Below are positions 35,651-36,746 of a DNA stretch of 64,000 nt, piece after piece. How positions within the stretch are numbered: the first letter of the stretch is position 1; each line of letters opens with the position of its first letter. The position numbers were made by a program, and so were the translations under genes. The stretch is taken from the NCBI RefSeq assembly GCF_050920415.1, contig NZ_CP169309.1, one strand, 5' to 3'. This DNA comes from Escherichia coli. GTDB taxonomy: Bacteria > Pseudomonadota > Gammaproteobacteria > Enterobacterales > Enterobacteriaceae. The notes beneath the pieces are model-generated. The model was not told the origin of the DNA. It worked only from the letters and a program-made list of their open reading frames with translations, and made no database searches.

Positions 35651-35778
35651 GGATATTTATCAGGATTTATCGGTTCCGAATCCCTGGATATGTTAAGTCT
35701 TCAGCCTGCCAGTGGTGGGCACTGGTGTTTTACCTGATGGCTGAAATATATCTGACAATTCCCGTCGAGGATTTAGCA

Positions 35779-36093
35779 ATGTATAACGATGAACATAAAT
35801 ATACCGCCTGCATGCAGGCCATGAATGAACAATTTAAATCAGCATTCCTTAAACTCATTCAGCAAAACCACAAAGCAGTAAAATCCATTCAGGCTGAGCC
35901 GTATGGACACCTCACACCACCAACTCTCGACATTATGTCCAGAATATTAACACCAGCCATGCTTCTACGTCTGAAAGACAATATAAATGACTGGTTAAAC
36001 GAAGAATTAAACTACCTTGAATGTGAGTGGGATCATCATTACGCCAAATCACAAAAAGAACGCATCTTCCGTCGATTATCCGGCAACAGATAA
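35779..36093 (+). CDS. hypothetical protein (inserted gene inside the lysis cassette, convergent)
   Basis: Low-GC ORF MYNDEHKYTACMQAMNEQFKS... with agga RBS; possible upstream in-frame ATG at 35725. Confidence 0.4.
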   Translation: MYNDEHKYTACMQAMNEQFKSAFLKLIQQNHKAVKSIQAEPYGHLTPPTLDIMSRILTPAMLLRLKDNINDWLNEELNYLECEWDHHYAKSQKERIFRRLSGNR

Positions 36094-36102
36094 CGAGCCA
36101 GC

Positions 36103-36743
36103 TTATATACGTCCTTTAAGATAAGTCAGTCCTGGATGAAACCAGTAAGCAGGCACTTTTTTAAAGGGTGGATTATCAAAATCACGAAGAAGAGCCTCCC
36201 GCACAACTGCATCCTTGTCCGCACCACTGGCCAGCGCTTCAATCTCAGCAGCTACCTGCAGATATCCCATGCAACGACCAATGCGCTTCATTAGTCCCTG
36301 CTTTTTATTGTTCTTCAGGTAATCAATGGCAAATTCAATGAGCGCCTCACTGTGCTGGTGCGATGCTGGTGTTACTTTTCCATCTTCACGGATCGTGATA
36401 TTCCAGTCATCGCTTGTCACAATAAAAGATGGCCGATTCCCCCCCCATGCCTGGTCTTTATCCGGTGCAGACGCAATAAAATAACGTTTATTGCCTTCCT
36501 CTCCGGCACTTTTAACTGTAATGGAGTACTTTTCTGACAATGCGGTCGGTAAAAACTTTTCCTGCAAAATCTTCTCAAAGGTCCTGCGAGCAATTTTGAT
36601 GCAATCATCGTAAAACGCTGCTTCCTGCTCATCGCGGCGTTTTTTTCATCTTCAGAAACCATCAGCACCGACAGTTTTTTATTCAGTTCAGTGATTTCAT
36701 TTTCCAGGCAACTTATGCGCTGATTCATTTCTTCATGGTTCAT
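36103..36743 (-). CDS. hypothetical ~213-aa protein needing a -1 frameshift at A_AAA_AAC (or pseudogene)
   Basis: Frame X (MNHEEMNQRISCLENEITELNKKLSVLMVSEDEK) runs into a GAAAAAAAC run at 36639-36647. The -1 frame opens exactly there and continues protein-like (KRRDEQEAAFYDDCIKIARRTFEKILQEKFLPTAL... to 36103). The 0-frame continuation looks like junk. Confidence 0.45.
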
Positions 36744-36746
36744 CGT

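Follow-up and report, generated by a model that had tools for sequence, protein, structure and literature searches.

In Escherichia coli, RNase E is bound at its catalytic N-terminal half by YdfR (DUF1327), a protein that also co-purifies with RNA (PMC13232886). The ydfR gene is located between essQ and rrrQ of the K-12 Qin prophage, and a counterpart, ORF47, is present in phage BP-4795. Here we describe the corresponding interval, between the holin gene S and the lysozyme gene R, of a lambdoid prophage in the chromosome of an E. coli strain, which is contained in a 64,000-nt stretch of DNA (the window) and in which two genes, A and B, lie within positions 35651–36746. The YdfR genes occupy the same slot and strand as gene A and follow the S stop codon with the same tight spacing, and in many YdfR alleles DUF1327 is joined to the C-terminal domain that A has, as in the 268-aa gp05 of phage 86, which is labelled "YdfR family". 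The A of the window differs in having a coiled coil instead of DUF1327, and classical YdfR proteins (103–114 aa) differ in lacking the C-terminal domain of A and an adjacent gene B. The binding of YdfR to RNase E is the only functional lead, and one by analogy, as it comes from sister alleles whereas the A of the window is without DUF1327. The literature searched contained no study of either gene family, and its only work on genes between S and R was the YdfR–RNase E paper.

S21-type lysis cassettes control the release of phage and Shiga toxin (Stx) in Shiga toxin-producing E. coli, including that from the O104:H4 outbreak prophage, which has the same A–B pair, and in ~80% of surveyed cassettes the interval between S and R is occupied by an uncharacterised gene. 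Effects of A or B on lysis timing, on the stability of late mRNA or on prophage competition, if they exist, would bear on toxin release and prophage ecology.

By sequence, the closest systems are phage 86 (orf5/orf6) and the O104:H4 Stx2a prophage, both with the order holin gene, A, convergent B and lysozyme gene. Relative to these, the C-terminal part of A is 81–86% identical and B is 68% identical; their A is an intact 268-aa protein with DUF1327 and a linker at its N-terminus, whereas the A of the window is frameshifted. Late-operon morons provide a second comparison. The P22-like ant moron (immI region) is a block of variable content; it includes opposite-strand genes and can affect late expression downstream (PMC2629481). 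Like this block and bor, which is located downstream of Rz, A and B are variable, have an odd base composition, include an opposite-strand gene and occur as many alleles and damaged copies, and, like the ant moron, they would in principle be able to affect read-through into the downstream late gene. Presence and absence among syntenic relatives, a mark of morons, is seen in the six states of the slot across 70 cassettes and in the precise deletion of B in loci L075 and L092; base composition, another such mark, deviates with 44.3% GC in A and 39.7% in B from the ~55% of the flanking lysis genes (55.1% in the holin gene and 54.7% in R). Unlike typical morons, A runs in the direction of the operon and is coupled to S, and so is not independently expressed. 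For B, scans gave no promoter above threshold and no terminator after the gene, and a weak, conserved −10-like motif and a hairpin are located upstream. No repressor, antirepressor or lipoprotein homology of A or B was found in this comparison. Pore-forming colicin operons have the same layout of an induced gene, a small opposite-strand gene and a lysis gene, and the opposite-strand immunity gene has its own promoter (PMC9517006). This likeness is one of layout only: A is without a receptor-binding, translocation or known killing domain, B is soluble, unlike the membrane-located immunity proteins of pore formers, and no sequence or fold similarity to colicin systems was found.

Contents of the S–R slot in related prophages

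The A–B segment is one recurrent allele of a hypervariable accessory slot in Stx-phage-like lambdoid prophages and not a singular insertion. We hold the descriptive part of this account, namely a recurrent slot allele with two real genes of which A is a pseudogene here, with high confidence. For a survey of the slot, the 80 IMG/VR loci with the most similar holins were fetched, 70 of which carry both S and R; the sample is skewed to holins at least 94% identical to that of the window. As a first-pass annotation made from the sequence alone had it, the segment is extra relative to phage-21-like cassettes. The segment is also foreign in base composition (44% GC in A and 40% in B, compared with 55% in S and R). 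The premise of the annotation that S and R normally abut is true for only 13 of the 70 related cassettes in this lineage (19%), in which the slot is empty. A DUF1327/YdfR-type gene without the C-terminal domain of A fills the slot at 40 loci, gene A with its C-terminal domain and no B at 10, A together with B at 5, and the N-terminus of A together with an unrelated 233-aa reverse-strand open reading frame (ORF) at 2. Among individual phages, the slot holds a 114-aa YdfR gene in BP-4795, DUF1327 with a coiled coil and then a reverse-strand DUF1823-like gene in PhiR12, a 329-aa A and no B in Stx2_95, the 233-aa reverse ORF in Stx2_14040, and both A and B in Stx2 phage 86 (orf5/orf6) and the Stx2a phages of strain 12E129. 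A search of 5426 complete E. coli genomes found the full A–B segment, between S and R, in 82. Carriage of both genes by many related phages as conserved lysis accessories, which the first-pass annotation had set down as a finding that would count against its interpretation, is what is observed (82 genomes, phage 86 and 12E129).

The 233-aa ORF of Stx2_14040 (L005 1792–2493, minus strand; also in L077 and L114) is unannotated and overlaps the 3′ end of an annotated 161-aa forward gene; Pfam, PHROG and PADLOC searches gave no match for this ORF. The alternative cargo genes of the slot have no match in Pfam, NCBIfam or PADLOC.

A point that is apparently undescribed is the conservation of the convergent A–B pair beside holin genes from E. 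coli to Salmonella. For B, 1.84 billion representative proteins were searched exhaustively with a profile, and only 20 matched; several of these are 30–45% identical and confirmed as phrog_1853. In every B-anchored locus with the flank present, B directly adjoins the 3′ end of A. Loci with Salmonella-annotated A homologues (L139 and L149 to L153) have a 166–192-aa A and then a convergent B at a spacing of ~20 nt, and here the pair is upstream of the holin gene, with the lysozyme gene directly after the holin gene. In the metagenomic contigs L140 to L142, the two genes overlap by 33 nt and precede a gene for a lambda-type holin (PF05106) and a different endolysin, and in L143 the pair precedes an HP1-type holin gene (PF16080). 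The holin families encoded downstream of the pair are PF04971 (L139 and L152), PF16080 (L149 and L143) and PF05106 (L140 to L142). L138 retains 70 aa of the C-terminal part of A as a remnant between the S21 holin gene and B. In Salmonella and metagenomic prophages, the pair recurs at 38–52% protein identity, which bears out the earlier treatment of the two genes as a pair. Across seven lineages, the C-terminal part of A is 41–87% identical and B is 38–89% identical, and the pairwise identities correlate (r = 0.91). Judged from these sequences, A and B behave as one inherited unit kept beside the holin gene, on either side of it. A genome-contig scan with P0141 gave no match.

Each gene also occurs without the other. 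In L075 and L092, A is intact (185 aa), and all that remains of B behind it is its final three codons with the stop codon, joined at an imperfect direct repeat, CCG(G)ATAA(A)TC. Because the last codons and stop codon of B remain at this repeat, B was lost from these loci by a deletion of ~413 bp; A without B as the ancestral state is rejected at least for these two loci. In EC4115 and L155, an intact A is directly followed by R or by the holin gene, with no B, and in L156 a reverse-strand DUF1883 gene takes the place of B after A. An intact B accompanies a frameshifted A in the window and in L012, L013 and L046, and B stands alone between S and R, with A deleted, in L144 to L147. To judge from these alleles, the phage can do without either gene, and neither gene depends on the other.

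Coding status and families of genes A and B

Gene A (36103–36743, minus strand) would encode 213 aa if intact and is a pseudogene in the window, where it falls into two ORFs, of 108 and 154 aa. The sole length difference from the closest intact allele (strain 08-00022, WP_001015166.1, 213 aa) is a 1-nt deletion that changes A8 to A7 (T7 on the plus strand), located at 36640–36646 by DNA alignment with L004; this deletion relative to intact relatives accounts for the frameshift that the first-pass annotation required for a same-strand gene of ~213 aa. The frame is lost after residue 34, and the native frame resumes at 36645 and runs to the stop codon at 36105–36103, with the tblastn match breaking into residues 1–34 and 34–62. 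The A7 allele is also present in NZ_CP169399.1 (L003; "frameshifted" in RefSeq) and in contigs L012 and L013. Because L012 and L013 come from two other IMG genome projects, A7 is probably an inherited mutation, and a sequencing error as the cause of the frameshift is unlikely. Other lesions of A are found in other lineages (L046, L109/L122, L043 and L057), and A is usually intact among relatives. The mutant GAA-AAA-AAC contains the heptamer A_AAA_AAC, at which a −1 slip would restore the native frame, and some full-length A may remain.

The intact 213-aa allele matches phrog_1085 over residues 1–213 (E = 2.1e-101), as do distant homologues from Salmonella (2e-29) and a metagenome (1.5e-17). 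Intact homologues range from 185 to ~330 aa (forms of 185, 213, 268, 287, 296, 311 and ~330 aa) and are modular, consisting of an exchangeable N-terminus and a conserved C-terminal domain with the invariant motifs GRCMG-LQ-AAEIE and PPFK...W..PG..YLK. The N-terminus is a coiled coil in the 185- and 213-aa forms, including that of the window, and DUF1327 with linkers in the 268-, 287-, 296- and ~330-aa forms, which carry the database label "YdfR family". DUF1327 (PF07041) gives no match in the A of the window or in the intact 213-aa allele, whereas gp05 of phage 86 matches at 3.7e-45. Because the domain is absent, the A of the window is not a YdfR-family protein in the Pfam sense; its relationship is to the C-terminal part of "YdfR family" proteins. 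Across 14 alleles, the last 88 codons of A have a median ratio of nonsynonymous to synonymous substitution rates (dN/dS) of 0.23, which indicates purifying selection. The product is predicted to be soluble, with no membrane segment or signal peptide (the maximum 19-residue hydropathy is 0.76 for A and 0.94 for B). An AlphaFold2 model of A from a 30-sequence alignment had a predicted local distance difference test score (pLDDT) of 52.6, too poor for a fold search, and sequence-profile searches of PDB gave no match for the A family or the B family.

RefSeq calls A a truncated "YdfR family" pseudogene in ATCC 25922 (L009 1912–2800) and in O104:H4 (L010 2815–3631), with 480–590 bp left unannotated. 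The A ORFs at these two loci are actually intact, at 296 and 268 aa, respectively, and this artefact hides the C-terminal domain in many genomes.

Gene B (35779–36093, plus strand, antisense to the late transcript) encodes a soluble, all-helical protein of 104 aa that matches phrog_1853 (E = 7.7e-47); distant homologues match this family at 9e-43 to 1.5e-9. Its AlphaFold2 model has five helices (pLDDT 85.7; predicted template modelling score 0.78), and the product has a pI of 7.8 and no hydrophobic segment. The first-pass annotation had allowed a length of 104–122 aa. The 104-aa start at 35779 stands, being backed by conserved MYND/MHND/MNN starts and a GAGG(A) ribosome-binding site 7 nt upstream (GAGGA at 35767–35771 in the window, conserved as GAGG in E. 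coli and Salmonella homologues), and the 122-aa GTG and 118-aa ATG extensions do not, as their frame is broken by a 1-nt indel in relatives. The 54 B loci comprise 12 distinct alleles, all of 104 codons, with 0 internal stops and a median dN/dS of 0.36, so that B too is under purifying selection; no ORF of more than 42 aa is present on the late strand opposite B. By these measures of coding constraint, A and B are real genes and not chance ORFs. Whereas the earlier reading offered no family assignment, A and B can be placed in phrog_1085 and phrog_1853, both families of unknown function. Neither gene has a match in Pfam, NCBIfam or PADLOC. Gene B is matched at four distinct sites in the source genome NZ_CP169399.1, and several lambdoid prophages of that genome would thus carry the module.

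Control signals and possible roles of the pair

Upstream of B, an inverted repeat, CCAGTG-N5-CACTGG (35709–35725, plus strand), is located 54 nt from the gene by upstream alignment. It is unique in the window, with 0 occurrences expected by chance, and is found in 34 fetched loci, where the stem is invariant and the loop varies from 5 to 8 nt. The hairpin precedes the B homologues of Salmonella (L139 3932–3949) and L140, and also the unrelated reverse-strand genes of PhiR12 (DUF1823-like; L006 2312–2328), Stx2_14040 (233-aa ORF; L005 2480–2496) and L156 (DUF1883; 1234–1251). Its folding energy is −9.7 to −15.5 kcal/mol, with z-scores that are moderate for the Salmonella hairpins (−2.0 to −2.7) and do not stand out for those of E. 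coli (−0.1 to −0.2). A −10-like motif, TAyGkT (TATGTT at 35689–35694), occurs 11–12 nt upstream of the hairpin and is conserved in E. coli, Salmonella and L140; with TTTATC and a 17-nt spacer it forms a candidate weak promoter for B in the alignment (35666–35694, plus strand, 7/12 matches). The hairpin may be a 5′ stem-loop or an operator for B; more generally, reverse-strand inserts beside the holin gene seem to share it as a portable 5′ control element or operator. The region as a whole would be the 5′ control region of an independently transcribed reverse-strand cassette, whose B transcript would run antisense into A.

The best reading is that A and B form a co-inherited, moron-like accessory module that is tied to the lysis region and belongs to existing PHROG families; at present the module amounts to two conserved, clearly bounded genes of unknown function and to no new kind of system. 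Gene A would be made at lysis time, since its start codon is 3 nt after the S stop codon in the late transcript (always 3–4 nt across relatives). This agrees with the lysis-time expression that the first-pass annotation had suggested, as far as A is concerned, and A would then be a soluble late protein made together with the lysis proteins. Transcription of B would start at a weak promoter of its own, most likely in the lysogen. Late, Q-driven transcription and transcription of B would oppose each other, as the genes converge with no terminator between them, and A would then be on late and B on otherwise. Because the two genes are inherited as a unit beside holin genes in E. coli and Salmonella, B may be a partner or an antagonist that targets, or works with, the C-terminal domain of A. 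Such a partnership between A and B is proposed tentatively, and we lean slightly toward doubting it. For the explanation as a whole, which combines the accessory-slot allele, reciprocal expression and the A–B partnership, the case for and the case against seem to us about evenly balanced.

A more specific and improbable form of the partnership has A as a late cytoplasmic effector whose N-terminal module (DUF1327 or coiled coil) would aim at a host target such as RNase E, with B, made in the lysogen, as its antagonist. B would then neutralise A that arises from leaky late transcription, or the A of related superinfecting or co-resident prophages. If true, the pair would be an element of prophage–prophage competition or of self-protection, of a kind not yet described for lysis cassettes.

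Several points weigh against a functional partnership and reciprocal expression. The correlation of A and B identities also follows from simple co-inheritance, and tight linkage, through a 9-nt gap or overlapping 3′ ends, could alone hold the two genes together. B is far rarer than A, its DNA being found in 94 complete E. coli genomes compared with 786 for the DNA of the C-terminal part of A. The unrelated reverse-strand genes that follow A in other alleles (DUF1823-like, the 233-aa ORF and DUF1883) fit a generic insertion hot spot. A sigma-70 promoter scan had no site above threshold for B and an intrinsic-terminator scan had none between or after the convergent genes; for this reason, the expression of B on its own account is something that we infer.

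The main rival starts from the same points and holds that A and B are functionally unrelated morons and neighbours by chance, with A a YdfR-related late gene and B an independently expressed gene of the lysogenic-conversion type. B would have been inserted once downstream of A and kept there only because almost no DNA lies between the two for recombination. The other reverse-strand genes of PhiR12, Stx2_14040 and L156 stand at the same site after A and behind the same hairpin, B occurs in about one-eighth as many E. coli genomes as the C-terminal domain of A, each gene occurs intact without the other, and low GC content with a presence/absence pattern is typical of morons (PMC2629481). Chance neighbourhood is less easily reconciled with the persistence of a convergent, abutting pair at 38–52% identity, in a different position relative to the holin gene, beside three holin families and in highly mosaic genomes; moreover, where alleles are swapped, the replacement takes in both B and the C-terminal part of A as a single block. 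On balance this rival is unlikely, if the most serious of those considered.

A role for A, with or without B, as a dedicated regulator of pinholin triggering, of the release of the signal-anchor-release (SAR) endolysin or of lysis timing, likened to accessory lysis-timing genes such as lysA/lysB/lysC of P2 and lydB of P1, is very unlikely. Position would speak for such a role, as A or its DUF1327 relatives always adjoin the holin gene, upstream or downstream, across three holin families, and A is coupled to the S stop codon; a published envelope-integrity screen also listed ydfR (as cited in PMC13232886). However, A and B have no membrane segments or signal peptides, whereas known antiholins and related regulators operate at the membrane or in the periplasm, nothing occupies the slot in 19% of cassettes, A is frameshifted in several lineages, and B is on the wrong strand for production with the lysis proteins.

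The first-pass annotation had likened the pair to a toxin–antitoxin (TA) or abortive-infection/defence system within the lysis cassette; two small adjacent genes of unknown function co-inherited in a prophage, the genuine TA modules (HicAB and ParE/HTH) in the Q-to-lysis region of relatives and a B that is disrupted in 0 of 54 loci would suit that comparison, but it is highly improbable, as the genes are separable and convergent and match no defence or toxin family, which argues against an obligate toxin and antidote. Specifically, A, B and their distant homologues match no toxin, antitoxin or defence family in Pfam, NCBIfam or PADLOC, and a PADLOC-DB search at E ≤ 0.1 returned only a spurious Cas6b match (E = 0.015, 12.9 bits). 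Type II TA genes are co-directional and co-transcribed, whereas A and B converge with stop codons 9 nt apart and are not an operon. Nor does either gene behave as an obligatory antidote, as a toxin is not kept intact without its antidote: A remains intact after the precise loss of B and in hundreds of genomes without B, and B remains intact where A is frameshifted (the window, L012, L013 and L046) or deleted (L144 to L147). In addition, translational coupling of A to S would have A made in every lytic cycle of its own phage.

Flanking lysis genes and prophage surroundings

On the minus strand, the order is S21-type pinholin gene, A and putative SAR-type lysozyme gene, with B on the plus strand, and the 1.2 kb around the A–B segment is 100% identical to NZ_CP169399.1 (strain MFDS1022581). 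The pinholin gene S (36747–36962, minus strand) encodes a class II holin of 71 aa that matches Pfam PF04971 at 63/64 profile positions (E = 1e-32), is named "class II holin family protein" in RefSeq (WP_000284518.1) and has a dual-start motif (N-terminus MYQMEK, with Met1 and Met4). The lysozyme gene R (35117–35650, minus strand) encodes 177 aa (Pfam PF00959, E = 2.7e-24; RefSeq lysozyme WP_001092885.1) with a weakly hydrophobic, Ala/Gly-rich N-terminus, GLSAAVLALIAAGAPAP. R is predicted to be SAR-type by analogy with the endolysin class predicted for Stx phages (PMC8136144). The 9-nt spacer between the convergent A and B stop codons (36094–36102) has no terminator-like hairpin in the intrinsic-terminator scan, and an Rfam search found no RNA family within 35651–36746. 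The positions of the holin gene, A, B and the lysozyme gene and the stop-to-stop gap had been given correctly in the first-pass annotation.

In related prophages, the interval from Q to the A–B pair or holin gene carries the TA modules HicAB and ParE with an HTH protein, and also ADP-ribosyltransferase toxin genes (Enterotoxin_a/Scabin-like and pertussis-S1-like); these TA and ADP-ribosyltransferase cargo genes are located at L139 6195–6833, L149 1569–2269, L154 1339–1992, L144 4913–5704 and L152 1157–2137. The whole Q-to-lysis interval is a cargo hot spot.

Two other genes of the prophage are also "frameshifted" in RefSeq, namely an Rz-like lysis gene (L003 8163–8629; ~34172–34638 in the window) and the portal gene (L003 13159 onward). 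These additional frameshifts may reflect a decaying prophage or homopolymer errors elsewhere in the assembly.

Just upstream of the holin gene, the Rfam small RNA STnc100 is matched at 37260–37458 on the minus strand (148.7 bits, E = 3e-34), and a weak, sub-threshold match to Esr41 is present at 37103–37193 on the plus strand. A TerB-family gene and a DUF3927 gene (37524–38116, minus strand, and 38293–38542) are located downstream of phage tRNA genes, where Stx phages carry stx; the prophage is stx-less but built like an Stx phage.

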